Shown piece after piece: positions 2 through 39,289 of a DNA stretch of 64,000 bases. Below the pieces are notes generated by a model that saw only the letters and a program-made list of their open reading frames with translations, made no database searches and was not told where the DNA came from. The position numbers were made by a program, and so were the translations under genes. This DNA comes from Streptosporangiaceae bacterium (GTDB lineage Bacteria; Actinomycetota; Actinomycetes; Streptosporangiales; Streptosporangiaceae), in assembly GCA_036267555.1 (NCBI GenBank), contig DATAVV010000383.1, forward strand, positions 5,443 through 69,442, written 5' to 3'. Within the stretch, counting starts at the first letter, position 1; every line of letters starts with the position of its first letter.

Positions 2-3000
2 GGGTTCGTCTCGGGAGATCAGCTGTTCGTGACGGGCCGGGTCAAAGACCTGATCATCGTGCGGGGACGCAACCACTACCCGCATGACATCGAAGCCACC
101 GCGGAGCGAAGCAGCCCGATGATGCGCCCCGGCTGCGGGGCGGCGTTCACCGTCGCGGACGATGACCAGGAGCGCCTGGTCATCGCGCACGAGGTCGCCC
201 GGGGGGTCGACCAGGTGAACGCCGGTGAAGTGGCCGGAGCGATCCGGGCTGCGGTGGCTGAGGAACACGGAGTCCGCGTCGATACCGTGGTCCTGCTGCC
301 GCCGGGCACGATCCCGAAGACCTCGAGCGGCAAGATCCAGCGCCACCAGTGCCTGGCCATGTTCGAAGCCGGAACCCTCACGCCGCTGGCCCGCGACGAC
401 GACGACGGCGGCGCCGGCGCCCGGGACGGGCGGCGCGCCCTGGACAAATCGCGGCTGCTCGCCGCGCCCGCCGCGCAGCGCCCCGGGCTCGTGCGGGACT
501 ACCTGTGCGATCTCGCCGCCGCGGAGTGCGGCATCGACGCGGACACCATCGCCACGGACGCGCCTCTGTTCGCCCTCGGCATCGACTCGCTCGCCATAAC
601 CGGCATCCAGCACTCGATCGAGACGGATTTGGGCGTGCGGGTGACTTTGTCGTACCTGGCCGACGCGGTCAGCCTCACTGGCCTGGCTGCCCGGCTGGGA
701 GAACAGGTCGAGGCGGACGGCATGTCGCCAGCGACCCAGATCCCGGTCTCCCCGGGGCAGCGCTCACTATGGTTCCTCCACGAGCTGGAACCCGGCAGCG
801 CCGCCCACACCATCGCGGTGGCCATGCGGTTGCGCGGCGAGCTGGACGTCGCCGCGCTGCAGAGCGCACTCGACGCGCTGGTCCGGCGGCACGCGTCACT
901 GCGCGCGACCTTCCCGGCCGTTGACGGCGCACCAGTCCAGCGGATCGCGGCCACGGCTCGGGCGCTGCTACGCCAGCACGACGCCCGGGATCTCGTCGAG
1001 GCGGCGCTCACCGAGCGGCTTGAGCAGGCCGCCCGCGAGCCGTTCGACCTGGCCCGCGGACCGCTGCTGCGCATCGACCTCTACCGCGCGGCACCGGGCG
1101 AGACGGTCGTCCTGGTGGCGGCCCACCACATCATCACGGACTTCTGGTCGATGACCGTACTCGTCCGCGAGCTCGAGGCGCTGTACGCCGAGCGGACCGG
1201 CGGTGCGCCCGCGCGGCTGCCGGAGCCGGCAGCGACCTACGCCGACTTCGTCGCCTGGCAGCAGCGAACGCTCGGAGAGGAGGCGGGCCAGCGCCTTGGC
1301 CATTACTGGCACGAGCAGTTGCAGGGCGCCGCGCCGCGGTTGCGGCTGCCGGGGCAGGTCACCGCGAGCGAGCCGCCCCCGGCCGCCGGGTCCGCGCCTG
1401 ACCCCGGCGGCCGGGACGCCGCGGCCATCTGTCGGCTGCGATTCGGGGAGTCGCTGCTGGGCCGCCTCAAGGAGCGGGCCCGCTCCGAAAGCGTCACCCT
1501 GCCCATGCTCATGCTCACGGCATTCCAGCTGCTGCTGCACCGCTACACGGGGCAGGACGATCTGAGCGTCGGCATGCCCGCGGCGGGGCGCGGGCGGCCC
1601 GAGTTCGAGGCCGTCGTCGGCTACTGCATGAACCCGGTCGTGATCCGCAGCACGCTGCGCGGCGGCGAGCCCGTGCGCGCGGCCCTGCGGCAGACGAGGA
1701 CGCGCGTCATCGGCGCCCTGGAACACCAGGAATACCCGCTGCCGCTCGTCGCCGCGGACCGCGGCGCACGTGAGCTGTTCCAGGCGATGTTCGTGTTCAA
1801 CCGGCCGCCGACCCCGGGCGAGGGCACGCTCGCGCTGCTGATGATGGGCCAGCCGGGACTGCGCCGCGGGTTCGGCGGCCTCCAAGCCGAGGCTGTGCCG
1901 CTGGACATAGGCGCCGCCGCGCACGATCTGGAACTTACCGTGGCCGAGGTCGACAACGCGCTGCTCGGCTCGTTCCGCTACCACCCCGAGGTGCTGGACC
2001 AGGCGACCGCCGCCCAGATGATGCGCCATCTCGAGGCCATCGCCGAAGCCATCGCGGAGAACGCCGCGCAGCCTGCGGATTCCGTTCCGATGCTGCGAGA
2101 CGACGAACGCCGGCGCATCGTCGCCGGGTGGCAGGCCACGGCGCGGGACTATGACGTCGGGGCCAACGTGGCCGGGCTTTTCGAGCGACAGGCGGACGCC
2201 GCCCCGGACGCGATCGCGGTCGAGGGGGAGTCCTCGCGGGTCACCTACGGGGAGCTGAACGAAAACGCCAACCGGATCGCCCACTTCCTGCGCCGCCGGG
2301 GCGTCAGGGCCGGCGCCCGCGTGGGCGTGTACGTCGACCGCTCACCCAGGATGGTCGCGGCCCTCATGGGCGTACTCAGGGCGGGCGCCGCCTACGTTCC
2401 TGTCGATCCGGCGCACCCGCGCGACCGGGTCGCGGCGATGTTCGCCGACGCGGGCGTGACGATCGTGCTGAGCCAGGCGGCGCTGGCCTCCCGGCTGCCG
2501 GGTGAGATCGAGGCGGTGCTGCTCGACGACGGCTGGGCGGCCCTCATGGCGCATCCGGAGGACAACCCGGGCCTGGCCACGCCCGCGGACGGCGCGGCCT
2601 ACGTGATCTACACCTCTGGCTCGACCGGCACCCCCAAGGGCGTGCAAGTGGGACACCGCTCCCTGACCAACTACACGCTGTCCGCCGTCGCGCAGTTCGG
2701 CCTCGCCCCGGGCGACCGGGTCCTCCAGTTCGCCTCGGTCGGCTTCGACGCCAGCGCCGAGGAGATCTACCCTGCCCTGGCCTCTGGCGCGACGGTGGTG
2801 CTGCGCAACGACTGGATGCTGAGTTCCGCGCAGACCTTCCTGGCCACGTGCGCCCAGTGGCGCATCAACGTGCTCGACCTGCCGACCGCGTACTGGCACG
2901 AACTGGTCACCGGCATCGCAGGCGGCCAGGCCGCGGTCCCGGCCAGCCTGCGCCTGGTCATCATCGGCGGCGAGCGTGCCTGGCCCCGGCAGTTGCGCGC

Positions 3001-5437
3001 GTGGCGAAAGCACGTCGGCGACTCCGTCCGCCTGGTCAACACCTACGGGCCCACGGAAGCGACGATCGTCGCGACCACGGGCGAACTGACCGGGATCCCG
3101 GCCGGCGGTGACGTGCCCATCGGCCGGCCCGTGGCCAACGTCACGGCCTACGTGCTCGACCCGGCGGGGGAGCCAGCCCCGCCGGGCGCCGCCGGGGAGC
3201 TCTACCTGGGCGGGGCCGGGATCGCGTACGGCTACCTGAATCGACCGGACCTGACCAGCACGCGCTTCGTGCCCGATCCGTTCCGGGGCGGCGGCTCCCG
3301 GATGTACCGTACCGGCGACCTCGCGTGCTATCTGCAGGACGGGAACCTCGTGTTCCTCGGGCGCGCCGACCGTCAGATCAAGCTGCGCGGCTACCGGGTT
3401 GAGCCCGGGGAGATCGAAGGCATCTTGCGCCAGCTTCCCGGGGTGGCTGACGCCCTGGTCACCCAGCACGGCGCGGCCGGTCAGCTCGTCGGGTACCTGG
3501 TCACCAACGGCGACGGCGCACCGGACCCGGCGCGGTTGCGCGGTGCGCTGCGGGAGAAGCTGCCCGGCTACATGGTGCCGTCCTCGTTCGTCGCGGTCGG
3601 GTCCTTCCCGCGCACGCCCAACGGCAAGGTCGACCTGGACGCCTTGCCGCCGCCGCGGCTCAGCGCGCCCGAGCCCACGGCGCCGCGGACCCCGGCCGAG
3701 GAATTCCTGGTCCGGACGTTCACCGACGTGCTCGGGCTGCCCGCCGTCGGGGTTCATGACGATTTCTTCGACCGCGGCGGTACTTCGCTGCTGGCCGCCC
3801 GGGTGGTCGCTCGCATCCGGGAGCACTTCTCGGTGGACGTTCCGCTCCGGTCGATCTTCGAGTGCGCGACCCCCGCCGCGCTGGCGGAACTGGTCGGCTC
3901 GGCGCCACCGGGCACGGCCGGGCCGCAGCTTCCCCCGATCCGCGGGGTGCCGCGGGACCAGCCGCTGCCGTTGTCATTCGTGCAAGAGCAGGTCTGGTTC
4001 CTGCAGCGGCTGGCCCCGGAATCCACCGCGTACAACGTGCCCCGGGCCCTGCGCGTCCGCGGCGAGTTCGACCAGGAGAAGGTCGCCCTGGCCTTCGCGG
4101 CGCTCGAAAGGCGCCACGAGATTCTCCGCACGACATTCCCTGACCACGGCGGCCAGCCCGTGCAAGTCATTCATCCGCCCCGCGGGATCCCGGTTCAGGC
4201 GGTTGACCTGGAATGCGTGCCCGAGGGCGAGCGGGACGACCGCATCAGGCAGTTCATCCTCGACCGCGGCCAGGAGCCCTTCGACCTGGCGACCGGCCCG
4301 CTCATCCGGCTGGCCCTGCTCCGGCTGGGACCGGCGGATCACGTACTGATCATGGTTGAGCACCATCTCGTTCATGACGGCTGGGCACAGGGTGTCCTGC
4401 TGCGGGACTTCCTCGAGCTGTACCAGGCCCAGGTCCTGCGGCGCCCGGCGAAGCTTCCCGAGCTGGCCGTTCAGTATGCCGACTACGCGGCTTGGCAACG
4501 TGAGAACCTGCGCGGCGAGCAACTCGACGCTCTGCTGGACTTCTGGACGGCGGAGCTGGAAGGAGCACCGCCGGTACTGACCCTGCCGACGGACCGGGCT
4601 CGCCCACAGACCCTGACCTTCGAGGGCCAGCAAGAGTCGCTGGTGATCGAGGGCGAATTCACCACCGCACTGCGCAGCTTCGGCCAGGAGCGCCGGGCGA
4701 CGCTCTTCATGACCATGCTCACCGGGTTCTCCGTTCTCCTGCACCGCTATGCCGCCCAGGCGGACATGGTGGTCGGAGTGGGCATCGCCAACCGCCAGCG
4801 GCCTGAGGCCGAGAACCTGCTGGGAATGATGATCAATACAGTGCTGGTGCGGGTCGACGCGTCAGGCACCCCGAGTTTCGAGGAGCTGCTCGGACGCGTC
4901 CGGGAGAGATGCCTGCAGGCCTACGCGCATCAGGACATGCCGTTCTCGAAGCTGGTCGAGCGGCTTGCCCCCCGGCGCAGCCTCAGCCGCATGCCGCTAT
5001 GCCAGGTGCTGTTCAGCTTCCTGGACACGCCCATGCCGGCCCTGCAGATACCGGGCCTGAGCTTCGAGGTCATCGAGGCGCACAACCGCAGCGCCAAATT
5101 CGATCTCAATGTGGTCGTGGTGCCGGGGGCGCTGCCGGGGGGCGGCCAGCCACAGCAGCGGCTGGACGGCGCGATCACCGTGCTCATGGAGTACAACGCC
5201 GACGTCTTCGAAGCCGAGACCGTGCGGCGAATGCTCGGCGACCTGCGGACCATCTTCACCACGGCGATCGCGCAGCCGCAGCGGCCCGTTGGCGACTTCC
5301 TCCCGGACCTCGTGCGGCCCTCGGCCGTGGCGCAGGACCAGGTGTCGGCCGTGGCCGAGCCGGCGCCGGACGGCGGCGGGGCGCCCAGGAAACTCGCAAG
5401 CTCCGGATCGAGCCGAGTGGGCAGCTGGTGGTCGTGA
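2..5437 (+). CDS. Non-ribosomal peptide synthetase (5' end outside window): FAAL C-terminal part-ACP-C-A-T-C
   Basis: The frame is open from nt 2. LFVTGRVKDLIIVRGRNHYP and KTSSGKIQRHQC are adenylate-forming A8/A10 cores of fatty-acyl-AMP-ligase type. The carrier Ser lies in LGIDSL. C-domain His motifs are HHIITDFWS and HHLVHDGWA. A-domain cores are YVIYTSGSTGTPKGV, NTYGPTE, YRTGDL, GRADRQIKLRGYRVEPGEIE and PNGKVD. The second carrier is FFDRGGTSLL. Stop TGA is at 5435-5437. Confidence 0.93.
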   Translation, partial: GFVSGDQLFVTGRVKDLIIVRGRNHYPHDIEATAERSSPMMRPGCGAAFTVADDDQERLVIAHEVARGVDQVNAGEVAGAIRAAVAEEHGVRVDTVVLLPPGTIPKTSSGKIQRHQCLAMFEAGTLTPLARDDDDGGAGARDGRRALDKSRLLAAPAAQRPGLVRDYLCDLAAAECGIDADTIATDAPLFALGIDSLAITGIQHSIETDLGVRVTLSYLADAVSLTGLAARLGEQVEADGMSPATQIPVSPGQRSLWFLHELEPGSAAHTIAVAMRLRGELDVAALQSALDALVRRHASLRATFPAVDGAPVQRIAATARALLRQHDARDLVEAALTERLEQAAREPFDLARGPLLRIDLYRAAPGETVVLVAAHHIITDFWSMTVLVRELEALYAERTGGAPARLPEPAATYADFVAWQQRTLGEEAGQRLGHYWHEQLQGAAPRLRLPGQVTASEPPPAAGSAPDPGGRDAAAICRLRFGESLLGRLKERARSESVTLPMLMLTAFQLLLHRYTGQDDLSVGMPAAGRGRPEFEAVVGYCMNPVVIRSTLRGGEPVRAALRQTRTRVIGALEHQEYPLPLVAADRGARELFQAMFVFNRPPTPGEGTLALLMMGQPGLRRGFGGLQAEAVPLDIGAAAHDLELTVAEVDNALLGSFRYHPEVLDQATAAQMMRHLEAIAEAIAENAAQPADSVPMLRDDERRRIVAGWQATARDYDVGANVAGLFERQADAAPDAIAVEGESSRVTYGELNENANRIAHFLRRRGVRAGARVGVYVDRSPRMVAALMGVLRAGAAYVPVDPAHPRDRVAAMFADAGVTIVLSQAALASRLPGEIEAVLLDDGWAALMAHPEDNPGLATPADGAAYVIYTSGSTGTPKGVQVGHRSLTNYTLSAVAQFGLAPGDRVLQFASVGFDASAEEIYPALASGATVVLRNDWMLSSAQTFLATCAQWRINVLDLPTAYWHELVTGIAGGQAAVPASLRLVIIGGERAWPRQLRAWRKHVGDSVRLVNTYGPTEATIVATTGELTGIPAGGDVPIGRPVANVTAYVLDPAGEPAPPGAAGELYLGGAGIAYGYLNRPDLTSTRFVPDPFRGGGSRMYRTGDLACYLQDGNLVFLGRADRQIKLRGYRVEPGEIEGILRQLPGVADALVTQHGAAGQLVGYLVTNGDGAPDPARLRGALREKLPGYMVPSSFVAVGSFPRTPNGKVDLDALPPPRLSAPEPTAPRTPAEEFLVRTFTDVLGLPAVGVHDDFFDRGGTSLLAARVVARIREHFSVDVPLRSIFECATPAALAELVGSAPPGTAGPQLPPIRGVPRDQPLPLSFVQEQVWFLQRLAPESTAYNVPRALRVRGEFDQEKVALAFAALERRHEILRTTFPDHGGQPVQVIHPPRGIPVQAVDLECVPEGERDDRIRQFILDRGQEPFDLATGPLIRLALLRLGPADHVLIMVEHHLVHDGWAQGVLLRDFLELYQAQVLRRPAKLPELAVQYADYAAWQRENLRGEQLDALLDFWTAELEGAPPVLTLPTDRARPQTLTFEGQQESLVIEGEFTTALRSFGQERRATLFMTMLTGFSVLLHRYAAQADMVVGVGIANRQRPEAENLLGMMINTVLVRVDASGTPSFEELLGRVRERCLQAYAHQDMPFSKLVERLAPRRSLSRMPLCQVLFSFLDTPMPALQIPGLSFEVIEAHNRSAKFDLNVVVVPGALPGGGQPQQRLDGAITVLMEYNADVFEAETVRRMLGDLRTIFTTAIAQPQRPVGDFLPDLVRPSAVAQDQVSAVAEPAPDGGGAPRKLASSGSSRVGSWWS
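476..703 (+). other. NRPS domain: acyl carrier (ACP/T1)
   Basis: The LFALGIDSLAITGIQ phosphopantetheine-Ser motif lies directly after the FAAL C-terminus. Boundaries are approximate. Confidence 0.75.
734..2068 (+). other. NRPS domain: condensation domain 1 (position of a lipo-initiation/starter C)
   Basis: SPGQRSLWFLHE C1 motif and HHIITDFWS C3 motif. The domain follows FAAL-ACP. Boundaries are approximate. Confidence 0.8.
2141..3643 (+). other. NRPS domain: adenylation domain (only A domain in the window)
   Basis: Cores A2 to A10 are recognisable: LRAGAAYVPVD, YTSGSTGTPKG, FDASAEE, NTYGPTE, GELYLGGAGIAYGYL, YRTGDL, GRADRQIKLRGYRVE, PNGKVD. Confidence 0.9.
3692..3898 (+). other. NRPS domain: peptidyl carrier (T2)
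   Basis: DDFFDRGGTSLLAARV motif. Confidence 0.85.
3941..5293 (+). other. NRPS domain: terminal condensation domain (no downstream A/T/TE in the same protein)
   Basis: LSFVQEQVWFLQRL C1 motif and MVEHHLVHDGWA C3 motif. A roughly 45-aa unstructured tail follows before the stop. Confidence 0.85.
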
Positions 5438-7752
5438 CCCGGGAAGACAGCCATCAGGTCGCACTGAGCGGCACCGCATGGGTCTTGTGGCGGGACGTCT
5501 GCGTGCGCAGCGCCGGTTTTCCGGTGCGGCGGGTACTCGCGCTGTGCGACGCCGACCTGGCGGATGCCGCGGACGAATACAGCCGCTCGGCTGACACGGC
5601 GTCGGCTGACACGGCCGCGGCCGTGACGTACCAGTCGGCCTACCAGGCGGCCGTCGCCCGGCTACCTGGCATTTTCGCGGACTTCGCGAGGGAGCCGCGA
5701 TTCCGGGAAGCGGTGATCTGGCAGAACCTGAACATGGCCGAGAACTGCCTCGACCGGCTGACGGCGCAGTCACGGCGCAACCGAAAGGGACGGCAGCGCG
5801 AAAACGCGGTCACCAGCTATGTCCAGCGGTATTGCCTGAAGAACGACTCCATCGGCTTCTTCGGGCCCGTGGGCTGGGCGTGCCTCACCGACGAAGACGA
5901 CGAGGCGGCCGTTATCCCGGGCGGTCAGCTGGTGGCCAGGAGAACGACCTACTTCGAGACGTGGGCCATCGACCAGATAGCCCGGGTGCTCGCCGAGCGT
6001 GACGATGTGTCCAGGTGGCTCCGGCCGCGCCGGGACCCGTCGACGCTGCTGGCGGGGAACCGCGTGCACAGCCTGCGGCGGCGCCCCGCGGCGCTGTCAC
6101 CCGAGCAGCTCCGCATGCTAATGCGCTGCGATGGCCGCCGGACGGTGAGCGAGCTGCTCGCCTCGCCCGAACCCGACCCCCGGACGGTGCTGGACGGCCT
6201 GCGGGATCTCGGCGCGGTGCGGATCGATCTCGCGGTCCCCGTCCAGACCTGGCCGGAACGGTGGCTGCGACGGCACCTCGAGGGCATCGGCGATCCCGCG
6301 GTCCGGGCTGAGGCGCTCCGCCCGCTGGACGATGTTGTCGCGGCCCGGGACGCGGTAGCGGCCGCCACGGGGGATCCCGACGCGCTGCGGGCCGCGATGT
6401 CGGCGCTCGCGCAGACCTTCGAGCGCGTCACGGGAAGGCCGCCGACCCGGCGGCCCGGTGAGACCTACGCGGCGCGCACGCTGGTCTATGAGGACACGGT
6501 CCGGGACCTGGAGGTGAGGCTGGGAAATACCATGATCAAGGCCCTGGCCGAGCCGCTGGGCCTGATGCTCGACAGCGCCCGCTGGCTGGTAACCGACATC
6601 ACTGAGCGGTACCGGGCGCTATTCCTGCGCTTGTTCGACGGCGAGTGCACGCGCACCGGGACCGGCCAGGTGCCGTTGTACCGCCTGCTGATGCTGGCCG
6701 CGAGCGAGATCTCCGCGCCATCGGCCCGCGGGCTCACCAAGGTCGTCTCCCAAGCTTTGCCGGAATTCCAGAAGCGCTGGCAGGCCGTGCTCCAGACCCC
6801 CCAGGACGGGCGTCCGCGGCACTCGGCCCGGTGCGCCGACATCGCCGAGAGGGTCGGCGCGCTGTTCCCGGCCCGGCCGGTGTCCTGGAGCTGCGCTTCG
6901 CAGTATTCGCCGGACATCATGATCGCCGCGACGTCGGCGGACGCGCTGGGCCAGGGCAACTTCCTGCTGGTACTCGGCGAGCTTCACCTGGCGGTCAACA
7001 CCCTGGAAAGCAGGTGCGCTGTCGAGCAGCACGCGGACCCGGCCCGGCTGCTGGACATGGTCGCCGCCGATCACGGCGCCAGGCGGATCGTCGCCGTTCC
7101 CGACCGGAATTCGCCCTTCGTCACGACGCGGGTGACGCCGCCGACGGCGCTGTTGTCGCCCGGCTTCACCTACCTGGCCAACGAGAACGGATCGTTCGAG
7201 CCACCCGAATCGGCTCAGGTGCTCCCGGCTGGAGGCATGTCCGTCAGACGCGACGGTGAAGACCTGGTCGTGCGGTCCGGTGCCTCGGGCCGGGCGTTCT
7301 CCTTCCTCGAACTCATCGGGGATCTCATGACCGCGGTGGTGGCCAACGCGTTCCGCCCCATGGCCCCGGCGCCGCATCAGCCTCGCGTCACGATCGACAA
7401 GCTCGTCTTCAGCCGGGAAGCCTGGACGTTCTCGGTCTCCGACTCACCATGGGTACTGGTCAAGGACGAGGCGCAGCGATATGCGCTGGCCCGGCAGTGG
7501 CGCACGGCAAACCGGCTCCCCGAGCGCATCTTCTACAAGGTCCCGTCCGAAGACAAGCCGGTAGCGGCCGACTTCCGGAGCCTGCCGCTCGTCAACCTGC
7601 TGGCCAGGAATGTGCGACACAGCCGGGACGCCGGGTTTGACACGTTCGGCGTCACCGAGATGCTGCCGGACATCGACCGGCTCTGGCTGCCCGACGCAGC
7701 GGACGAGCGGTACACCTGCGAGCTGAGATTCGTCGCGACGTCATGCGAATGA
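5434..7752 (+). CDS. Lantibiotic-dehydratase-N (LanB glutamylation domain)-like protein, small-LanB/PEARL-like size (772 aa)
   Basis: GTG 5434 overlaps the NRPS stop (GTGA). WVLWRDVCVRSAGFPV and YVQRYCLKNDSIGFFGPVGWA resemble, from memory, actinomycete proteins annotated as lantibiotic dehydratase (Lant_dehydr_N). No elimination (SpaB_C-like) domain is recognisable. The family call is by eye only. Confidence 0.55.
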   Translation: MTREDSHQVALSGTAWVLWRDVCVRSAGFPVRRVLALCDADLADAADEYSRSADTASADTAAAVTYQSAYQAAVARLPGIFADFAREPRFREAVIWQNLNMAENCLDRLTAQSRRNRKGRQRENAVTSYVQRYCLKNDSIGFFGPVGWACLTDEDDEAAVIPGGQLVARRTTYFETWAIDQIARVLAERDDVSRWLRPRRDPSTLLAGNRVHSLRRRPAALSPEQLRMLMRCDGRRTVSELLASPEPDPRTVLDGLRDLGAVRIDLAVPVQTWPERWLRRHLEGIGDPAVRAEALRPLDDVVAARDAVAAATGDPDALRAAMSALAQTFERVTGRPPTRRPGETYAARTLVYEDTVRDLEVRLGNTMIKALAEPLGLMLDSARWLVTDITERYRALFLRLFDGECTRTGTGQVPLYRLLMLAASEISAPSARGLTKVVSQALPEFQKRWQAVLQTPQDGRPRHSARCADIAERVGALFPARPVSWSCASQYSPDIMIAATSADALGQGNFLLVLGELHLAVNTLESRCAVEQHADPARLLDMVAADHGARRIVAVPDRNSPFVTTRVTPPTALLSPGFTYLANENGSFEPPESAQVLPAGGMSVRRDGEDLVVRSGASGRAFSFLELIGDLMTAVVANAFRPMAPAPHQPRVTIDKLVFSREAWTFSVSDSPWVLVKDEAQRYALARQWRTANRLPERIFYKVPSEDKPVAADFRSLPLVNLLARNVRHSRDAGFDTFGVTEMLPDIDRLWLPDAADERYTCELRFVATSCE

Positions 7753-7759
7753 GGTAGCC

Positions 7760-10351
7760 ATGCGGAACCATGTCCGCCGCGGGCCGCGCGCCGTGCGGCA
7801 CGCCGCGCACCTGCTGGTGGCGGTCTGCGTGTCCGCCAGCGTTCTCGGCGTGTTCGCGTTCGGCTGGGGTCCCCTCCCGGCGCTGGGCGAGGCGCTGGAC
7901 CCGGGCCACGGCGCGTGGGCGTCGGCGGCCGGCGCGGCCCTGCCGCACTCGGAATCTCTGCGCATCCCCGGCCTCATGCACCCGGCCACGGTCTACTTCA
8001 CGGCCCAGGGAATACCGTCGGTCCGGGCGGCGGACGAGAATGACCTGTATCTAGCGCAGGGATACGTCGAGGCCAGCTTCCGCCTGACCGAAATGGACCT
8101 GCAGCGCCGGCTCGCCGAGGGACGGCTGGCGCAGCTCGGCGGGGCCTCGGAGGTGTCCTCCGACGAGTTCGAACTGCGGCTGGGCCTGCTCAGGACCGCG
8201 GAGCAGGAATGGGCGCAGACTCCGCGCTCGAGCGCGGCGGGACAAGAGTTGCTCGCCTACTCCCGTGGCGTCAACGACTACCTGGCCCGGGAGCGGGCCA
8301 CGCATGGCTGGCCCGCGATATTCACGCTGGCCGGGGTCTACCCGGGCGCATGGACGCCGGTAGACAGCCTGGCCGTCCAAGGGCTGCTGACGCAGTTGCT
8401 CGATTTCACCACGACGCCGCTGGACTACGCGCTGCTGGAACGGTCCCTGGGCGCGGCCCGGACGATGACCTGGTTCCCGGTCGTCGCGCCGGACGCGCAG
8501 AGCCCGTACGACCAGGGGCCCTACCGGTATTCGGGGGTGACGCCACTTGCCGCCGGCGCCGCGAGTTCCGCGGGCGCCGCGATGAGCACGGCCGCGGCCG
8601 CCGGCCAGAACGGGCCGTCGGCCGCGCTGGACGCGGCGCACGGCGGCGTACCGGCCAAAGCCGCGGCGGCGGCACGCTCTCTTCTCGGCCAGATCGGCCA
8701 GCTTCCCGCCGGGCAGGTCCACGAGTACCCGGACAGCAACGCCTGGGCCGCCAACGGCCCCGCGGTGAGCGGCGGCGGCGCGATGCTGGCCGGTGACCCG
8801 CACCTGCCGCTGACGCTCCCGTCGATCTGGTACCAGCTCGCGCTGGGGGCGCCCGGCCTGGCGGTCAGCGGGGTAAGCGTTCCCGGCGTTCCCGGGATCG
8901 TCATCGGCCATAACAAAAACATCGCCTGGTCCCTGACCGACGTACAGAACGAGTCGACCCTGTTCTACTCGGAACAGACCAGCGCGAGCCACCCGGGCCA
9001 GTATTACTGGCGGGGCCGCTGGCGGCCCATGCGGCAAGTGCACTACACCATAGCCGTCCGGGGCGGAGCGCCCCGGCACCTGACCGTGGACATCACCGTT
9101 CACGGACCGATCATGACGCAGGTGCGGCAGACGACGGCCGTGGACTGGATGGGAAACGTTCCCTCGCCGGATGTGGCCGTCATCGCGCAAATCAGCAAGG
9201 CCAGCAACTACGCGCAGTTCCATGCGGCCCTGGCCAGGTGGAAGGCCCCGACGCAGAATTTCGTCTACGCGGATCAGGCCGGGAACATCGGCGTCGTGGC
9301 CGCGGGCTACTTTCCGCAGGTAGCGCACGGCGATCCGTGGCTTCCGCTGCCCGGGACCGGAGCCGATGACGTTGTCGGCGTCATTCCGTACCGCGCGACC
9401 CCTCAGGTATACGACCCGCCCGGTCATGTGGTCGCGACGGCGAACCAGCGGCCGGTAGGGCCTTCCTATCCCTACTACATAGGAACGTCCGCCGATTTTT
9501 ACGATCCCGGGTTCCGCGCCGATGACATCTACTCATACCTGCGGGCTCACCCGAGTATGCGAATGTCAGCCTTTGCCGCCCTGCAGACCAGCGTTCATGA
9601 CTGGCTGGCGAGCCAGATGGTGCCAAAGCTCCTGGCCGCGCTGCATGGCCACGAGCAGAGCGGAAAAGAGGAGGCGGCGATGCGATTGCTGACGGGATGG
9701 AATGACAGCATGGACAGCGACGCTCCGGCCGCCGCGATCTGGGCCACCTTCTGGTCGGATTACATATCCGCGGTGTTCGGGCCGTGGTGGCGGACGTCGC
9801 GGGTGCCGGTGGCCAGGAGCCTGAACGACCTGCAGGCCAGTTTCGACGCGGACCTGGAGGCCTGGACCCTGACCGATCCCGGTAATCCGGCCTTCAGCCC
9901 GCCGGGCGGCCGCCCGCGGACCGCGGCGCAGGTGATGAGGAGTGCCTTCGCGGCGGCGGTGACGCAGTTGTCGGCGAAGCTCGGGCCCCAGCCGGACAGG
10001 TGGGCGTGGGGGAGGCTGCACAGCACGGCGTTTCCTTCGCTGACCGGGATACCCGCGCTCGGCTACGGACCGCGGCCCGCTGGCGGTGATCAGTGGACCG
10101 TCAACGCCGCGGACGGATACCCCGTGTCCAGCGAGGGCCCGAGCTGGCGCATGATCGTGCGCTGGACCGCCCCGGGTCAGGCGGCAGCCGAGGGCCTCTA
10201 TCCGGGCGGCCAGAGCGAGAACCCGGCTTCGCCCTGGTACGACGACGACATGGCGCGCTGGTGGGCCGGAAGTTACCTGCCGATGCCGCCCGCCGGAGGA
10301 CACACCGGCGGCTGGGCCCGGTGGTCGCTACGTCCGGGGGGTGCGGGCTGA
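7760..10351 (+). CDS. Penicillin acylase-family Ntn hydrolase (PvdQ / aculeacin-A / AHL acylase-like), membrane-anchored or secreted
   Basis: ATG lies 8 nt after the previous stop, with a GAGG RBS. There is an N-terminal hydrophobic segment LLVAVCVSASVLGVFAF. The nucleophile context YPDSNAWAANGPAVSGGGAMLAGDPHL is typical of the beta-subunit N-terminus. The 863-aa length fits the family. Confidence 0.85.
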   Translation: MRNHVRRGPRAVRHAAHLLVAVCVSASVLGVFAFGWGPLPALGEALDPGHGAWASAAGAALPHSESLRIPGLMHPATVYFTAQGIPSVRAADENDLYLAQGYVEASFRLTEMDLQRRLAEGRLAQLGGASEVSSDEFELRLGLLRTAEQEWAQTPRSSAAGQELLAYSRGVNDYLARERATHGWPAIFTLAGVYPGAWTPVDSLAVQGLLTQLLDFTTTPLDYALLERSLGAARTMTWFPVVAPDAQSPYDQGPYRYSGVTPLAAGAASSAGAAMSTAAAAGQNGPSAALDAAHGGVPAKAAAAARSLLGQIGQLPAGQVHEYPDSNAWAANGPAVSGGGAMLAGDPHLPLTLPSIWYQLALGAPGLAVSGVSVPGVPGIVIGHNKNIAWSLTDVQNESTLFYSEQTSASHPGQYYWRGRWRPMRQVHYTIAVRGGAPRHLTVDITVHGPIMTQVRQTTAVDWMGNVPSPDVAVIAQISKASNYAQFHAALARWKAPTQNFVYADQAGNIGVVAAGYFPQVAHGDPWLPLPGTGADDVVGVIPYRATPQVYDPPGHVVATANQRPVGPSYPYYIGTSADFYDPGFRADDIYSYLRAHPSMRMSAFAALQTSVHDWLASQMVPKLLAALHGHEQSGKEEAAMRLLTGWNDSMDSDAPAAAIWATFWSDYISAVFGPWWRTSRVPVARSLNDLQASFDADLEAWTLTDPGNPAFSPPGGRPRTAAQVMRSAFAAAVTQLSAKLGPQPDRWAWGRLHSTAFPSLTGIPALGYGPRPAGGDQWTVNAADGYPVSSEGPSWRMIVRWTAPGQAAAEGLYPGGQSENPASPWYDDDMARWWAGSYLPMPPAGGHTGGWARWSLRPGGAG

Positions 10352-10837: not shown

Positions 10838-12148
10838 CTACCGGCCCGGGCCGAGAGCGGCCGCGAAGACGGACGCGACCTCGAGCGCCTGCTGGCGGTT
10901 GAGGCGGGGATCGCAGGCTGTGCGATAGCGGCGTGGCAGGTCGTCTTCGGTGACGCCGGCGAGCCCGCCGATGCACTCGGTGACGTCTTCGCCCGTCAAC
11001 TCGAGATGGAGACCGCCCGGATGGGTGCCCAGGGCCCGGTGCACCGCCACGTACCCGTTCACCTCATCGGTCATGTCGTCGACGTAGCGCGTCTTATAGC
11101 CATTACGCGACCGCCGGGTATTGGCGTGCATGGGATCGCACTGCCAGATGGCCACCTGCTCACTCGCGAGCAATTTCTCGATGATCGGCGGAAGCAGGTC
11201 GCGGACCCGGTCATGGCCAAGACGGCAGATGAGCGTGAGCCGGCCTGGCACGCGATCCGGATTGAGCCGCTCCGCGCAGTCCGCGACCTCTTCCGGCCGG
11301 GCACCCGGGCCGATCTTCAGCCCGATGGGATTGGCCAGCAACGCAGCGAACTGGACGTGAGCTCCCGCTGGCTGCCTGGTGCGGTCTCCGATCCACAGGA
11401 AATGAGAAGAAAGGTCGTACAGCCGGGGCGGCCCAAGGCCGGCGGCGACCGAGCGCAGCAAGCCGTACTCGTAATCCAGCACCAGCGCCTCGTGGCTGGC
11501 GAATATCTCGGCCGCGCCATGCAGGCCGAAGGCGCCGCCGGCGGCCGCGGCCCGTCGCTGCGGGCGGTCAGCCGGCTGTGACCGGCAGAAGGCCCGCAGC
11601 AGCCCGATCGTCGAGCGGGCCCGGGCGTGCGCGGTGATCATCCTGGCCGGGTCAGGAACGCGGGCGGCGCGGTTGCCGGCGGCGGAGTGGACCATGTCTC
11701 CGCGGTATGACGGCAGTCCCTCGGCATCCAGCAAGGCTGATCGCGGTTTCGCGTACTGGCCTCCCAGGCGCCCGATCATGACGACCGGCATCGCGGTGCC
11801 GCGCTCTACCACCGCCGTCATCGCGCACAGCACGCGCAGGCTGCCCACGACCTGCCCGGCGGTGAGCGCGAAGGTCTCCGCGCATTCCCCGCCCTGTACG
11901 AGGAGAGCCTGACCCCGGCATACCGCCTCCAGCCTGGCGCTGAGCCGGTCCACCTCGCCGGCCGTGACCACCGGAGGCTCGCGCGCGAGCGTGGCCCGCA
12001 CCGTCAGGGCGCGCCGCCGGTCGGGCCAGGCGGGCTGCTGGGCCGCGGGCCGTTCGAGCGCGGCACGGACCGCGCGCACCTGGTGCTCGGTCAGCGCGCT
12101 GGCCGCATCCGGTCCGTCACCGCCGACGCGGGCGGGCGGTGGGCTCAC
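10838..12148 (-). CDS. 3-deoxy-7-phosphoheptulonate (DAHP) synthase, class II
   Basis: Motif series AQQPAWPD, GGECAE, GGQYAKPRS, HEALVLDYE, WIGDRTRQ, NPIGLKIGP, WQCDPMHANT. GTG 12148 overlaps the upstream stop (GTGA). Confidence 0.9.
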   Translation of the reverse strand: MSPPPARVGGDGPDAASALTEHQVRAVRAALERPAAQQPAWPDRRRALTVRATLAREPPVVTAGEVDRLSARLEAVCRGQALLVQGGECAETFALTAGQVVGSLRVLCAMTAVVERGTAMPVVMIGRLGGQYAKPRSALLDAEGLPSYRGDMVHSAAGNRAARVPDPARMITAHARARSTIGLLRAFCRSQPADRPQRRAAAAGGAFGLHGAAEIFASHEALVLDYEYGLLRSVAAGLGPPRLYDLSSHFLWIGDRTRQPAGAHVQFAALLANPIGLKIGPGARPEEVADCAERLNPDRVPGRLTLICRLGHDRVRDLLPPIIEKLLASEQVAIWQCDPMHANTRRSRNGYKTRYVDDMTDEVNGYVAVHRALGTHPGGLHLELTGEDVTECIGGLAGVTEDDLPRRYRTACDPRLNRQQALEVASVFAAALGPGR

Positions 12149-13104
12149 CAGGTACCGCCGCGGCCCGGAGACAGCACACGGACCTGCTGGAACAGCGCCG
12201 CGCAGAGTGCGCTGTAGCCGTCGGACCCATCGCCGAGCCGACCGCGAGACTGCCGCATGAGCTGGCCGAATGCTGTTTCGTCACCGCGGTCAGCCAGCTC
12301 CGAGAGGCGAGCCACGCTGTTCGACAGGGCCTGCCGGGCCGGTCCGGCGTAGGGGTTCGCCCGCTGGATATCCCAGTACACCTCGGGCGTGCCGCCGGTT
12401 ATCCGGGCCACCAGCGCCATCAGCGTCGTGTACGGGGGCGGCGCCGCCGGCGCCGCCCCGGCCAGGTCGACGTCCAGCTCAGCCAGGGCCAGAGCGAACG
12501 CGAGGACGGTCGCGTGGACCAGCACCTGGGTGACCGACGTCAGCCGGTCATGGTCATCGGCGCTGAGCCGGATAACGTGCGCCCTGGCCCCGGCGAGCAG
12601 GCTCAGCAACGCGGCGGCCCGGGGGCCGTCGCGCTCGACCACGGCGGCGACGGCCTGGCCCGCGAACCCGAGTGACGGGGCGAACATCGGGTTCAGGCTG
12701 GCCGTCTCGACCCCGCCGCGAAGCTGGCGCTGGATCGCGCACACCCGGGACTTGACGGACAGCGTGTCGGCGAGCAGCGACCCCGGCCGCATCTGGGCGG
12801 CCACCGCGGCGACCGCGGCGAGCGCGACGGCTTCCGGCACGGCCAGGATGACGAGGTCGGCCGTTGCGATCTCGTCTCGCAGTTCCCGGGCCGGGGCGTA
12901 CAGATCGGCGCGGAGGAAGCGCGGGGCCGGGCCGCGCGGGGGAGCCGCCGGAGGCGATCCCGGCCACCCGCACGCCCCGGCGGGCGGGACGAGGTCAGCC
13001 ACGCACAGCTGACTGCCGTGGTCGCGCAGGAGCCCGGCGAACATCCCGCCCACGGCGCCCGAGCCGCCCACCACGACACACCGCGCGAACCGGGCCGGCG
13101 TCAC
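12145..13104 (-). CDS. Prephenate-dehydrogenase (TyrA) family protein; PapC-like 4-amino-4-deoxyprephenate dehydrogenase by context
   Basis: Rossmann motif VVVGGSGAVGGMFAGLL. The length is 319 aa. It has 4-nt overlaps with both neighbours in the pabAB/mutase operon. Confidence 0.7.
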   Translation of the reverse strand: MTPARFARCVVVGGSGAVGGMFAGLLRDHGSQLCVADLVPPAGACGWPGSPPAAPPRGPAPRFLRADLYAPARELRDEIATADLVILAVPEAVALAAVAAVAAQMRPGSLLADTLSVKSRVCAIQRQLRGGVETASLNPMFAPSLGFAGQAVAAVVERDGPRAAALLSLLAGARAHVIRLSADDHDRLTSVTQVLVHATVLAFALALAELDVDLAGAAPAAPPPYTTLMALVARITGGTPEVYWDIQRANPYAGPARQALSNSVARLSELADRGDETAFGQLMRQSRGRLGDGSDGYSALCAALFQQVRVLSPGRGGTW

Positions 13105-15242
13105 CGGCTCGCTCCGGGCAGCAGCTCCTGAGCGGGCAGTTCGGCCCCCAGGGCGGCGAGCATGGCCCGCGACTTGACGAGGATCTCCTCGTACTCGTCC
13201 GCCGGGTCGGACAGCGCGACAATCGCGCCGCCCGTGCCGAAGCTAGCGGTGTCACCCGAAATCACGACGGTCCTTATGACGATGCTGAGATCCGCCGCGC
13301 CGCTGAGCCCGAACCAGCCCAGACCGCCTGAGTACACGCCGCGGGCCCCCTCTTCGAGAGAGTCGATGATCTGCATCGTGCGCACCTTGGGCGCGCCCGT
13401 CATCGACCCGCCCGGGAAGGCCGCGCGCACGCACTCAATGGTCGAGGCGCCGGCGCGCAACTGACCTCGTACCGTGGAGACGAGCTGGTGCACGGTCCGG
13501 TAGGTCTCGACCTCGAAGATCCGTGGCACGTGAACCGACCCGACCTCGCAGACCCGGCCAAGGTCGTTCCGGACCAGATCGACGATCATGAGGTTTTCCG
13601 CCTTGTCCTTCTCATGGTGGAGAAGGTCCAGGCGCAGCCGCTCGTCTTCGTCCTCAGTGGTACCCCGGGGCCGCGTTCCCTTGATCGGGCGTGACTCCAC
13701 GGCACCGTCGGCGGTCACCGAGATGAAGCGCTCGGGCGAGGAGCTCAGCACCGCGACCGACGGCAGTCTCAGCAGCGCGCCATAGGGGACAGGGCTTATC
13801 CGGCGCAGCCGGCGGTAGACCGTGACGACGTCGCCGCGCAGCGGGACCGCGGCCATGTTCGTCAGGCATACCTCGTAGGACTCGCCCTGGTGGATCTCCT
13901 GGAGGCTGGACTTGATCCGCTCGATGTAAGCCGGCTGCTCGTGGCGAAAGCGTGCGACATCCGGCTGGCCCGCGAGAGGCAGATCGTCCAGGTGCGGCGG
14001 CTTGGCATCGATCTTCTCCAGCTCGGCCATCCGGTCCGCGAACTCCTCCAGCCACCCCTCGGCGGCTGCCGCGCTTCCCGCCGGGCCGGCGTCGACGTGG
14101 CTGAGGCACACCAGCCATCCCGAGTCGTCAGCCGCGTCGAAGATGATCATCCTGTCGGCGAAGATGAAGGCGGCGTCCGGCCCTTCGGACGTGTGCGCGA
14201 CGTCGCCGCCTGTTTCCGCCTTCAGCTCGTAGCCGAGGTATCCGACGTATCCCAGGTTGAACTCCGACGGCAGCCCACCGGGTGCCGCGAGCCGGCGTTC
14301 GCGCAGCCGGCTCTCCAGATAGCGGAAGACGGACTCACGCACCGTTTCCTCGCTGCCGTCGGCACGGCGTATTCGCACGACACCAGACCGGATGTCGTAG
14401 GTGACCACCTCCGCCAGCGGGCCCTCGCCGTCGCCCATGAACGACAGCCGGCCCGATGACCCGGGCCCGCTGTCCAGCCAGAAGCTCGGCTCCTTCCGGG
14501 CGAAGAACGTCAGGTACACCCGCTCGGGATCGGGCATCGAAGGCAGCCGGCGTGCGTGCAGGCGGTAGCGCGGAGGGGGCAAGGGCGCGGCGCCGCCGGG
14601 CCGGCCTACGCGGTCACTGCCTGCCGCGCTCACCGAGCATCGCGATTGACGGTAGACGGCGGAAAGCTCCCGGAAATTGGCCAGCAACTCCGCGCCGTAT
14701 TCCGTGCAGATGGACTCCGGGTGAAACTGCACACCCCAGAGCGGGAAGTCCCGGTGTCGTACCGCCATCACGACGCCGTCGCCAGACCATGCCGTGCACT
14801 CGAGCTCGGAAGGGACGCCGCTGACGGCGAGAGAGTGGTAGCGAACGGCCGAGAATGGTGAAGGTATCCCGGCGAATAGTTCCCCGCCGTTGTGGTAAAC
14901 GGGTGATTTCCGCCCGTGACGGGGTTCGGGTGCGAGGCCCACCGTCGCCCCCCAGATCTCACAAATTCCCTGATGTCCGAGGCAGACGCCGAGCACAGGC
15001 AGGCCGCTGGACCGGATCGCGTCGGCGCTGATGCCGAAATCACGCGCCCGGTCCGGCCGTCCCGGTCCGGGAGAGATGATGATGTTGTCTATTTCACTGA
15101 GCTGGATCGAGGACCAGTCGGCATCATTGGTGACGACCAGGGGCTGGCACCCGTTGACGCTGGCGATGAGATGGTACAGGTTATAAGTGAAAGAGTCGTA
15201 GTTGTCGATGAGAAGGGTTCGCATGACGTCGTCGCCGATCAT
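13101..15242 (-). CDS. pabB: Fused aminodeoxychorismate synthase PabA-PabB (PapA-like)
   Basis: The N-terminal glutamine amidotransferase shows LLIDNYDSFTYNLYHLI, GVCLGHQ and VQFHPES. The chorismate-utilising domain shows SSSPERF, PIKGTRPRG, FPGGSMTGAPK and GGAIVALSDP. Confidence 0.92.
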   Translation of the reverse strand: MIGDDVMRTLLIDNYDSFTYNLYHLIASVNGCQPLVVTNDADWSSIQLSEIDNIIISPGPGRPDRARDFGISADAIRSSGLPVLGVCLGHQGICEIWGATVGLAPEPRHGRKSPVYHNGGELFAGIPSPFSAVRYHSLAVSGVPSELECTAWSGDGVVMAVRHRDFPLWGVQFHPESICTEYGAELLANFRELSAVYRQSRCSVSAAGSDRVGRPGGAAPLPPPRYRLHARRLPSMPDPERVYLTFFARKEPSFWLDSGPGSSGRLSFMGDGEGPLAEVVTYDIRSGVVRIRRADGSEETVRESVFRYLESRLRERRLAAPGGLPSEFNLGYVGYLGYELKAETGGDVAHTSEGPDAAFIFADRMIIFDAADDSGWLVCLSHVDAGPAGSAAAAEGWLEEFADRMAELEKIDAKPPHLDDLPLAGQPDVARFRHEQPAYIERIKSSLQEIHQGESYEVCLTNMAAVPLRGDVVTVYRRLRRISPVPYGALLRLPSVAVLSSSPERFISVTADGAVESRPIKGTRPRGTTEDEDERLRLDLLHHEKDKAENLMIVDLVRNDLGRVCEVGSVHVPRIFEVETYRTVHQLVSTVRGQLRAGASTIECVRAAFPGGSMTGAPKVRTMQIIDSLEEGARGVYSGGLGWFGLSGAADLSIVIRTVVISGDTASFGTGGAIVALSDPADEYEEILVKSRAMLAALGAELPAQELLPGASR

Positions 15243-15583
15243 CCCTGAGCGGCGCTGCTCGCGATGTCGTGTCCATGAGCGCTGTTAATGATCGCGTCTT
15301 CAACGCGGCAGCTTTCGGAAATAAGGACGGCATAGAGCGAGCGCAGAAATTCGGGACTAATCTGATGCGCGTGCGCGTAGTCGCGGGCCCGTTCCTGAAC
15401 CAGGTCAATCCGGGCGGGCTGCATCATGGGAACGCCGCTTTCCCGCTTATACGAGGCGATGCGCATGCAGCAGGACAGTCTCTCCCGCACGATGTCGAGT
15501 AGCCGCTGGTCTATCTCGTCGAGTTCCGCGCGTAGCGAAGAAAGGTCCGTTCCTGCTTGCCCGCCCATTGCCGATGTCACCAT
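15239..15583 (-). CDS. AroQ-type chorismate-mutase-like protein; PapB-like 4-amino-4-deoxychorismate mutase by context
   Basis: The protein is 114 aa. LRAELDEIDQRLLDIVRERLSCCMRIASYKRESGVPMMQPARIDLV fits the helical AroQ signature. It has an ATGA overlap with pabAB. Confidence 0.75.
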   Translation of the reverse strand: MVTSAMGGQAGTDLSSLRAELDEIDQRLLDIVRERLSCCMRIASYKRESGVPMMQPARIDLVQERARDYAHAHQISPEFLRSLYAVLISESCRVEDAIINSAHGHDIASSAAQG

Positions 15584-18709: not shown

Positions 18710-18981
18710 GAGGTCCGATCGCGGCTCTCTCCATCGGCGCCGGGACTATCGCGTCACAAGATCATGCTTGCACCGGGCGCTGCGGACCGGCTGTGCGCCC
18801 GCTACGGCCGATGGTCCGTGCGGTACCTGGTGAGGTCAGAGGTCACGAGGAGTCGGCTGAGCCCGCGCTGTGGTCGATGAGCAGGCGCTATGCCGCGTTA
18901 AGTCAAATCACAGTCAGACCACAGTGCGGGCCGCGATCCTGGTCCGGATACATAGCCGTCGGCTCATACAAGGGTGATTGC

Positions 18982-19137
18982 ATGAAATCCAAGGTTGTAC
19001 GGATCTTCGCGGCGCTCTCTGCCGCCGCGATACTGAGCTGGACCGGTGTGGCGGCCAGCAACGCCTCAGTGGCTGGCGTGCAGAACCCGGGAGTCTCGCC
19101 GCATTGCAGCGTGTGCTGGACCGCGCCTAACAGCTGA
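18982..19137 (+). CDS. Small predicted secreted peptide (51 aa) with C-terminal CxxC-W motif
   Basis: An AGGGTGA RBS lies 5 nt before ATG. MKSKVVRIFAALSAAAILSWTGVAASNA looks like a Sec signal peptide. The tail is SVAGVQNPGVSPHCSVCWTAPNS. The flank is locally lower in GC. A perfect 14-bp hairpin follows 13 nt after the stop. Confidence 0.5.
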   Translation: MKSKVVRIFAALSAAAILSWTGVAASNASVAGVQNPGVSPHCSVCWTAPNS

Positions 19138-22236: not shown

Positions 22237-22500
22237 CCCATATACCCCCCAGTCGGGATCAGTCTCCCCATACAGTAAAAACTGACCAACTCGGTCATGG
22301 CCGATGCTACGCGCATAAGTAGCCAGGCCACGCGTCAGATACCCGATCAATCCGATGAATCGCTGCCGGTCTGGGCGCCGTGACCGCCCCGGCCTCGTTG
22401 ACCGCCGGGGCCCGCTAACGCCGGCGATGTAAATGGATGCTGGCCGGACCGCGGCGCGGCTGGTTACCGTGGGCTGTGCCTGCCGATCCCGCGTCCTGGC

Positions 22501-39285: not shown

Positions 39286-39289
39286 CTGC

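Follow-up and report, generated by a model that had tools for sequence, protein, structure and literature searches.

Judged by sequence, the closest known system to the gene pair described here is SnaE/SnaA, from the sna cluster of Stackebrandtia nassauensis, which combines non-ribosomal peptide synthetase (NRPS) and polyketide synthase (PKS) genes (Yu & van der Donk 2024, PMC11212132). SnaE (ADD43711.1), which adds a Thr residue, is so far the sole NRPS-associated PEARL (peptide aminoacyl-tRNA ligase) to have been studied, and the introduction of the same paper already states that a subset of NRPS clusters encodes such enzymes. PEARLs of pathways to peptides that are made on ribosomes and modified after translation (RiPPs) – TglB, BhaB1/5/7 and AmmB2-4 – extend the C-terminus of a 5–10 kDa ribosomal scaffold, and their fold is also that of the glutamylation domains of lantibiotic dehydratases (NisB, MibB and MadB, and the split TbtB and GodF). 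Here we analyse a 64,000-nucleotide (nt) stretch of DNA from a Streptosporangiaceae bacterium (GenBank assembly GCA_036267555.1, contig DATAVV010000383.1, positions 5,443–69,442), referred to in full as the window, in which the gene for a PEARL-like protein of 772 amino acids (aa) overlaps the end of an NRPS gene.

The 772-aa protein is probably a PEARL of the SnaE type, that is, an ATP- and aminoacyl-tRNA-dependent amide ligase that would act as a tailoring partner of the NRPS. The pair is most likely a further example of the system discovered in 2024, not new chemistry. Three features of the window bear directly on this reading:

2–5437, forward strand: NRPS gene, truncated at the left edge of the window (Pfam domains and motifs)
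3965–5296, forward strand: terminal condensation domain of this NRPS, of the Curea (ureido-forming) type (motif, BLASTP and neighbour-joining tree)
5434–7752, forward strand: gene for the PEARL-like (SnaE-type) protein with a LanB-glutamylation fold, 772 aa

Pfam assigns the 772-aa protein to one family only, PF04738 (Lant_dehydr_N; score 82 bits, cut-off 28 bits, E 3.8e-23), and it matches none of the NCBIfam models. On the structure predicted by AlphaFold2 (AF2) from a 33-sequence alignment (pLDDT 73.5, pTM 0.74), it is a member of the lantibiotic-dehydratase fold: when this model was compared with the PDB by Foldseek, the top 11 matches were all LanB or glutamylation domains (E 7e-16 to 3e-11), among them MibB (7e-16), TbtB (5e-15), GodF, NisB and MadB, and no other fold was found with E below 1. 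The TM scores to the dehydratases are about 0.5–0.6, with the best mutual coverage for the stand-alone glutamylation domain TbtB (TMq 0.61, TMt 0.59). Among the PDB sequences, LanB was detected neither by phmmer with the protein nor by hmmsearch with the 33-sequence family profile, so that the link is seen through fold comparison only. One part of the model deserves a separate remark: at aa ~196–266, three short strands are followed by three helices and one more strand, with C232 and D233 invariant and G234 and T237 nearly so. This predicted module, in which Pfam calls no PqqD-type domain, resembles a winged-helix RiPP recognition element (RRE), kept in an enzyme for which no leader peptide to bind is apparent.

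Within this fold, PEARLs can be told from dehydratases by the lack of an elimination-domain partner and by extra residues for the ATP-dependent phosphorylation of a carboxylate (PMC11212132, Fig. S12; PMC11962472). Taking the alignment blocks from Fig. S12 of PMC11212132 and the residue roles from PMC11962472, we find that the 772-aa protein carries SYVQRYCLKNDSIGFF and, near its C-terminus, YTCELRFVA, which correspond to the blocks Y-x-Q-R-x-x-x-K-N-D-x-I-G-F-F and Y-T-x-E-L-R-F-V-A that it has in common with SnaE. Y129, Q131, R132, K136 and N137, in the stretch SYVQRYCLKND, make up the putative tRNA-end-binding block; Y129, R132 and K136 align with Y205, R208 and K212 of BhaB7, of which Y205 and R208 touch the CCA end of the tRNA and are inactive when mutated (PMC11962472). 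E763 and R765, in turn, align with E813/R815 of BhaB7 and E801/R803 of TglB, which are required for phosphorylation (PMC11962472). Q131, R132, K136, N137, E763 and R765 are invariant in the 33 homologues, and Y129 is kept in at least 90% of them; R25, E516 and D546, invariant too, are candidate counterparts of the third acidic residue of the phosphorylation site (TglB E542/BhaB7 D558) and of the N-terminal Arg (TglB R10/BhaB7 R34).

Block by block, the protein is closest to SnaE, itself somewhat longer (845 aa) and compared in these two blocks only, with 29/56 identical positions (52%) in the first and 14/28 (50%) in the second. The RiPP PEARLs follow at ~33–40% (16–22 of 43–57 positions and 10–11 of 24–27), and the dehydratases come last (9–17 of 52–57 in the first block, for NisB, MibB, SpaB, EpiB and TbtB, and 6–10 of 20–28 in the second). 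The dehydratase motif R-x-x-x-R/K-x-(T/S)-P-(F/Y) is absent from the 772-aa protein, which reads R-Y-C-L-K-N-D-S-I-G-F-F at this point and displays the PEARL-type residues Q-R-x-x-x-K-N-D and a C-terminal E-L-R. We regard it as most likely not being a LanB dehydratase because three defining features – an elimination domain, whether in cis or split off, a LanC together with a LanA precursor, and the dehydratase-type motif – were looked for, the first two throughout the window, and not found; what is predicted instead, as the most likely function, is a tRNA-dependent amide ligase. With the RiPP PEARLs it has in common the fold, the Arg, Lys and Tyr residues at the tRNA 3′ end and the Glu and Arg of the ATP-grasp-like phosphorylation site, and the chemistry expected by analogy would be the formation of an acyl-phosphate followed by attack of an aminoacyl-tRNA; unlike them, it has an NRPS as its partner.

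The visible part of that NRPS consists of the C-terminal subdomain of a FAAL-like adenylation (A) domain, a thiolation (T) domain, a condensation (C) domain with the active site AHHIITDF, a second A domain, a second T domain and a terminal C domain; the full-length relatives, in the related loci L014 and L020, are 2250–2287 aa long and read FAAL-T-C-A-T-C. The terminal C domain has the active site EHHLVHDG (nt 4358–4381), which fits the pattern EHHXXHDG that marks Curea domains (Yu & van der Donk 2024, PMC11212132) and is identical to the E744HHLVH749DG of SnaA, where mutation of E744, H746 or H749 lowers ureido formation or abolishes it (PMC11212132). We compared both C domains with the labelled alignment in the supplement of PMC11212132, which includes three Curea references. 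By BLASTP, the terminal domain scores 309 bits with SnaA, 298 with ChmA1 and 278 with pppA1, against 262 for the best LCL domain, and the best matches of the first C domain are of the LCL type. In a neighbour-joining (NJ) tree, all EHHxxHDG domains, the three references included, are set apart by a single split that is recovered in 88% of 300 bootstraps; an earlier run that contained saturated (NaN) distances gave 46% and was discarded in favour of the corrected one. The specificity code of the A domain that precedes the terminal C domain is DAEDIGTIVK, which, being acidic, we presume to indicate a cationic substrate.

The PEARL-like gene starts with a GTG (5434–5436) that overlaps the TGA stop of the NRPS gene (5435–5437) in a 4-nt GTGA, and the 772-aa translation proposed in a first-pass annotation of the window is confirmed. 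By codon position, the GC content of the open reading frame (ORF) is 0.70/0.52/0.88, as expected of coding sequence in DNA of 70% GC, and the values for the in-frame stretch 5′ of it (4909–5433), 0.91/0.71/0.49, mark that frame as non-coding there; the third-position values (0.88 versus 0.49) place the start at or very near 5434, and homologues start at the equivalent residue (consensus 'MT...'). Another gene call, P0001, is 774 aa long and begins two codons further 5′, presumably at the in-frame GTG at 5428, and either start overlaps the NRPS gene. The same 4-nt overlap occurs at the junctions 12148/12145 and 13104/13101 of this cluster and is ordinary operon packing here; in relatives, the gene that overlaps the PEARL-like start from upstream is sometimes that for a major facilitator superfamily (MFS) transporter or a different NRPS. 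The weight that the first-pass annotation gave to tight physical coupling is thus not borne out.

Much else in that annotation has stood. The two motifs it quoted are present (WVLWRDVCVRSAGFPV at aa 16–31 and RYCLKNDSIGFFGP at aa 132–145), the family search it proposed gave the PF04738 match described above and none to PF14028, and the structural comparison it called for did return both NisB and MibB. Its description of the protein as a LanB-glutamylation relative lacking an elimination domain agrees with Pfam and Foldseek, and no LanC, elimination domain or precursor gene adjoins it within the window. Of its two suggestions for the activity – dehydrating a residue of the NRPS product or appending an amino acid – the second is favoured, and the first is disfavoured by the PEARL residues and by the lack of an elimination domain in view. 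What it took for unusual biochemistry has a direct precedent in SnaE (PMC11212132, 2024), and it overlooked the EHHLVHDG terminal domain of the upstream NRPS. The search it advised for a scaffold peptide turned up no credible small ORF in the window; the flank to the left lies outside the data, as the window's edge cuts the NRPS gene and our neighbourhood scans run from position 1 rightward over 64 kb.

These scans, in which Pfam was applied to essentially every ORF with coding-type codon bias, found no match to PF14028 or the LanC family among the predicted genes of the window, no small ORF with coding bias beside the PEARL-like gene and no tRNA gene within the 64 kb. Among the called genes of the related loci L014–L019 and L099 there is likewise no PF14028, LanC or scaffold-like ORF, and no small peptide gene was called next to the homologues. 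With no cognate ribosomal scaffold gene found in the window, the 772-aa protein is very probably not a canonical scaffold-peptide PEARL.

The combination of an NRPS ending in a Curea-type domain (FAAL-T-C-A-T-Curea) with a PEARL-like gene recurs in three sister clusters. In L014, a PEARL-like protein 84% identical to that of the window is encoded with the same 4-nt overlap behind a 2250-aa NRPS (FAAL-T-C-A-T-C, EHHLVHDG). The 2287-aa NRPS of L020 ends in a domain with EHHLIHDG, and its PEARL-like gene (50% identity) lies ~8 kb away. The third, L099, belongs to Streptosporangium longisporum (BAAAWD010000002.1, 389–411 kb) and has the order FAAL-T-C(AHHIVTDF)-A-T-Curea(EHHMVHDG) and a PEARL-like protein of 48% identity; a stand-alone A domain directly follows the Curea NRPS, and the gene for a T-C-A-T protein overlaps the PEARL-like gene. 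L015 and L016, whose PEARL-like proteins are 67% identical to that of the window, contain the same type of NRPS – with the terminal C motif falling just beyond the DNA examined – as well as a stand-alone A domain and an NRPS that begins with a T domain; such a T-first NRPS is also found in L019. The code of the A domain that feeds the terminal Curea domain is identical in L014 (DAEDIGTIVK), the same at the nine positions recovered in L015 and near-identical in L020 (DAQDIGNIVK). Genes for C-A-T-TE proteins or stand-alone thioesterases (TE) are present in the sister clusters. The A-domain codes of the second NRPS, DVWHMSLVDK in L020 and DVWHFSLVDK in L017, resemble what we take to be Ser codes.

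AlkZ-like genes adjoin the PEARL-like gene or its NRPS in several relatives of 61–67% identity, namely L017 (12309–13883), L018 (346–1479), L019 (14581–15663) and the P0270 contig. The AlkZ-like family includes self-resistance DNA glycosylases directed against DNA-alkylating natural products, which hints that the clusters concerned may make genotoxic compounds. In the 64-kb window, no AlkZ-like gene is visible.

Immediately downstream of the PEARL-like gene of the window, starting 7 nt past its end, lies the following gene:

7760–10351, forward strand: penicillin-amidase (Ntn-hydrolase) acylase, 863 aa (PF01804, 590 bits)

The encoded protein has an N-terminal hydrophobic segment of the signal or anchor type, and L015, L016 and L018 keep the order PEARL-like gene then amidase gene at 71% identity, while L017 has fragments. 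In pyoverdine biosynthesis, a transient acyl group is removed late and outside the cell by the Ntn-hydrolase PvdQ. The window's operon resembles such systems in joining a FAAL-like NRPS starter domain with a secreted or anchored enzyme of the penicillin-amidase family, which suggests an acyl group that is transient and removed outside the cell; it differs in that the NCBIfam PvdQ model is matched weakly, at 59 bits against a cut-off of 950. In L014, the gene that follows the PEARL-like gene (12547–13620), where the window has the penicillin amidase, encodes a haem peroxidase of the SfmD type (PF27188), a family associated with tyrosine hydroxylation in saframycin-type pathways; the window's own aromatic hydroxylase, of the biopterin type, is encoded at another place in the cluster.

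The PEARL-like family as a whole is large: in a search of the full library, the number of representative clusters was 2,422 with a limit of E <= 1e-3 and 1,129 with one of E <= 1e-30, and NRPS modules occur within 10 kb at 12 of the 13 related loci in named genomes. The two published SnaE fragments were absent from the 269 family proteins that we examined. In some members the tie to NRPS machinery that the first-pass annotation had drawn is covalent, the PEARL-like domain being fused to C-A-T (P0256, 1894 aa), to C (P0246, 1307 aa) or to TE (P0241, 1040 aa); in a further one (P0125, 1007 aa) it is joined to a nucleoside-2-deoxyribosyltransferase-like domain. All four fusions keep the PEARL motifs, including the equivalents of E763 and R765, and their C domains are ordinary ones, not Curea. 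Since the C domains beside more distant homologues are ordinary, too, the cooperation of NRPSs with PEARL-like proteins is broad and pairing with a Curea domain is one sub-type of it, to which the window, as far as its motifs indicate, belongs. In the literature that we consulted, there was no description of such fusions and no follow-up characterisation of other NRPS-linked PEARLs. Some relatives are duplicated: two divergent PEARL-like paralogues, with ~53% and ~40% identity to the 772-aa protein, stand tail-to-tail beside an NRPS in L001 (10001–12265/12316–14601) and L013 (7309–9609/~11067–13342). The neighbouring C domain in L001, L006, L007 and L013 has the motif THHIASDG and is nearest to the glycopeptide X-domain reference Tcp12 (42–44%).

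That the Curea motif and PEARL-like genes go together in general was considered and rejected. A metagenome scan with the terminal C domain returned 79 loci, of which five carry the motif (the closest, with 68% identity, being L020), and just one of these five has a PEARL-like gene within its flank; distant PEARL-like homologues, for their part, adjoin ordinary C domains.

How, then, does the locus compare with sna? In both, a PF04738-only 'lantibiotic dehydratase' is encoded in an NRPS cluster with neither a precursor nor an elimination domain, and the Curea active sites are identical; an acyl-CoA-dehydrogenase-like gene, comparable to that for SnaO in sna, is present in the sister cluster L020, too. 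The differences concern the assembly line: in SnaA (A-T-Curea-A-T), Curea belongs to the first extension module, whereas the NRPS of the window reads FAAL-T-C-A-T-Curea, with the acceptor apparently in trans. Furthermore, sna is an NRPS–PKS cluster and no PKS is visible in the window, which in turn adds the acylase and a PapABC-type gene set for p-aminophenylalanine.

Put together, the parts suggest the following route. The FAAL-like domain of the NRPS would load an acyl starter, and its A domain a probably cationic amino acid. The terminal Curea-type domain would then connect a free amine of this residue, through CO, with the amine of another aminoacyl-S-T, which a separate protein carries; a stand-alone A domain together with a T-first NRPS may supply this acceptor in trans, as the gene content of L099, L015 and L016 (and, for the T-first NRPS, of L019) suggests. 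The chain would thereby be reversed, and the carboxylate of the first residue would be left free and without activation. This carboxylate the PEARL-like enzyme would phosphorylate with ATP, by homology with SnaE and TglB, and the amine of an aminoacyl-tRNA would attack; once the tRNA had been hydrolysed off, one proteinogenic residue would have been added in the direction opposite to NRPS growth. Finally, as the conserved gene order suggests, the secreted or anchored acylase would probably remove the starter acyl group at a late stage, in the manner of PvdQ. As ureido formation leaves a carboxylate that thioester chemistry cannot extend, such a route would make sense of the pairing of an NRPS with a PEARL.

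Several observations weigh against this route. The Curea-type domain of the window is the last domain, after FAAL-T-C-A-T, whereas known modular Curea domains occupy the first extension module after the loading A-T (PMC11212132 supplement); its terminal position is an architectural variant. With FAAL-T-C ahead of the donor module, the α-amine of the donor residue should already be acylated, so that ureido formation would require a second free amine; one might speculate that a side-chain-acylated diamino residue of the Lys or Orn type provides it. For the acceptor half of the Curea module, the expected place is to the left of the window's edge. Four of the five motif-bearing metagenome loci have no PEARL-like gene in the flanks available, and most PEARL-like homologues adjoin ordinary C domains; as Curea and PEARL are thus not obligatorily linked, the carboxylate acted upon could be another one. 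The ATP- and tRNA-dependent mechanism of SnaE was itself deduced from homology and the deletion of its gene and was not reconstituted (PMC11212132), and the assignment of the 772-aa protein to the PEARLs is based on two short published alignment blocks.

The rival that these points favour most is a PEARL-like ligase that either extends a different carboxylate, the C-terminal one after TE release, or works on-line, docked to the NRPS, with the aminoacyl-tRNA amine attacking a carrier-bound intermediate. The fusions P0241, P0256 and P0246 with their ordinary C domains, the lack of a nearby Curea domain at most NRPS-linked homologues and the TE genes of the sister clusters all speak for it; yet a terminal-Curea NRPS and a PEARL-like gene stand together in the four clusters closest to the window, it is on the ureido-side carboxylate that SnaE acts, the sole relative linked to an NRPS to have been characterised, and the conserved Glu and Arg of the phosphorylation site argue for a free acid rather than a thioester as substrate. 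On balance we think this rival unlikely. A related possibility, hinted at by the C-PEARL, C-A-T-PEARL and TE-PEARL fusions, is that the enzyme belongs to the assembly line itself as a docked, quasi-modular component, which would elongate or terminate the chain in a tRNA-dependent manner and be fed by the terminal Curea and T domains. We rate it as improbable, yet it would matter if true: the clade, with its more than 1,000 representative clusters, would represent a general hybrid machinery for NRPS- and aminoacyl-tRNA-dependent peptide synthesis, with substrate rules different from those of the post-release model for SnaE.

Two further explanations start from the better-known relatives of the fold. 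A Glu-tRNA-dependent glutamylase might dehydrate or stably esterify a Ser or Thr of the non-ribosomal peptide, with elimination occurring spontaneously or through an unrelated enzyme; the fold is, after all, that of the glutamylation domains of NisB, MibB and TbtB, and the second-NRPS codes of L020 and L017 resemble presumed Ser codes. It is nonetheless very improbable, given that PF14028 was found neither in the protein nor in the window or the sister loci, that K-N-D follows the conserved Arg where dehydratases show R/K-x-(T/S)-P, that the C-terminal E-L-R is present with its PEARL-specific Arg, and that, of the three reference groups, the dehydratases have the lowest block similarity. Least probable of all, with hardly any weight in our view, is a canonical RiPP-type PEARL of a pearlin pathway next to an NRPS by chance. 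Its scaffold gene could sit in the left flank, beyond the window, and the strand/helix module at aa ~196–266 could be a vestigial RRE-like element, though the RRE is dispensable even in RiPP PEARLs (PMC11962472). Such an enzyme would, however, be hard to square with the NRPS neighbourhood at 12 of 13 loci and the covalent NRPS fusions, with a window whose sole small secreted-type ORF is not conserved and which holds no scaffold-like ORF, and with the lack of called small peptide genes beside the homologues in L014–L019 and L099. The SnaE-type tailoring ligase therefore remains the reading that we prefer.

To the right of the acylase gene, the window continues with a run of genes on the opposite strand:

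10838–12148, reverse strand: class II 3-deoxy-D-arabino-heptulosonate 7-phosphate (DAHP) synthase, an extra entry enzyme of the shikimate pathway (PF01474, 463 bits)
12145–13104, reverse strand: prephenate-dehydrogenase homologue, PapC-like (PDH_C and PDH_N; NCBIfam models all below their cut-offs)
13101–15242, reverse strand: aminodeoxychorismate (ADC) synthase with fused glutamine amidotransferase (GATase) and chorismate-binding parts, PapA-like (Pfam and NCBIfam)
15239–15583, reverse strand: AroQ-type chorismate mutase, 114 aa, PapB-like (PF01817 CM_2, 70 bits)
15577–16563, reverse strand: biopterin-dependent aromatic amino acid hydroxylase (PF00351, 231 bits)
16454–18745 and 19192–22734, reverse strand: two large BTAD/NB-ARC (SARP-LAL-like) transcriptional regulators (Pfam)

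The CM_2 mutase gene fills what looks like a 334-nt gap between 15242 and 15577, and a 4-nt overlap joins its stop to the start of the ADC synthase gene; by their domain content, the ADC synthase, the mutase and the prephenate-dehydrogenase homologue would constitute a PapABC-type set for p-aminophenylalanine. The hydroxylase scores 246.8 bits with the phenylalanine 4-monooxygenase model, whose cut-off is 247. Its ORF and that of the first regulator share 110 nt, so that simple ORF calling must have put at least one of the two starts in the wrong place. None of the related loci has the PapABC, DAHP-synthase or hydroxylase genes, for which reason we rejected them as a conserved part of the system; they are either specific to this cluster or merely adjacent. 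The two regulators probably mark its right-hand border, and the genes past 22.7 kb appear unrelated to it.

Between the two regulator genes, on the forward strand, lies an ORF of 51 aa (18982–19137) that reads MKSKVVRIFAALSAAAILSWTGVAAS and then NASVAGVQNPGVSPHCSVCWTAPNS. A Sec-type signal peptide precedes a short mature part with two Cys residues; upstream of the ORF lies a ribosome-binding site of the AAGGG type, and its stop is closely followed by a strong, GC-rich hairpin. Its codon bias is weak, and no homologue was found among 99 loci. We rejected it as a candidate scaffold peptide on account of its signal peptide, low codon bias and lack of conservation in the related loci.

Two regions further to the right deserve a brief mention. 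At 24645–27695 (forward strand), a 1016-aa protein combines a WD40 β-propeller, a GTPase of the Ras/Roc type and a C-terminal TIR domain; NLR/STAND-like in its make-up, it is reminiscent of anti-phage and cell-death signalling proteins. At 36251–41492 (reverse strand), genes for a Ser/Thr kinase (763 aa, with ~480 C-terminal residues that have no assigned domain), a GNAT acetyltransferase, a methyltransferase and an HFCD-type flavoprotein (PF02441) follow one another, next to a LuxR-type response regulator at 41678–42808 (forward strand). The run could represent a small locus of its own, for tailoring or of a RiPP-like kind; a LanC-type domain was not detected in it.

With SnaE so far standing alone, the window and its three sister clusters – one of them in the cultured Streptosporangium longisporum – offer independent test cases in which the Curea motif and the PEARL residues are found together. 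Their co-occurrence speaks for the view that reversing the chain and then extending it in a tRNA-dependent way is a strategy that biosynthesis can reuse. The family that would carry it out has many members, most of them linked to NRPSs and some joined covalently to NRPS domains, and annotating such genes as lantibiotic dehydratases, or their surroundings as lanthipeptide clusters, is wrong. A cluster with both an EHHxxHDG domain and a PF04738-only gene would rather be predicted to make a ureido lipopeptide bearing an extra, tRNA-derived residue.

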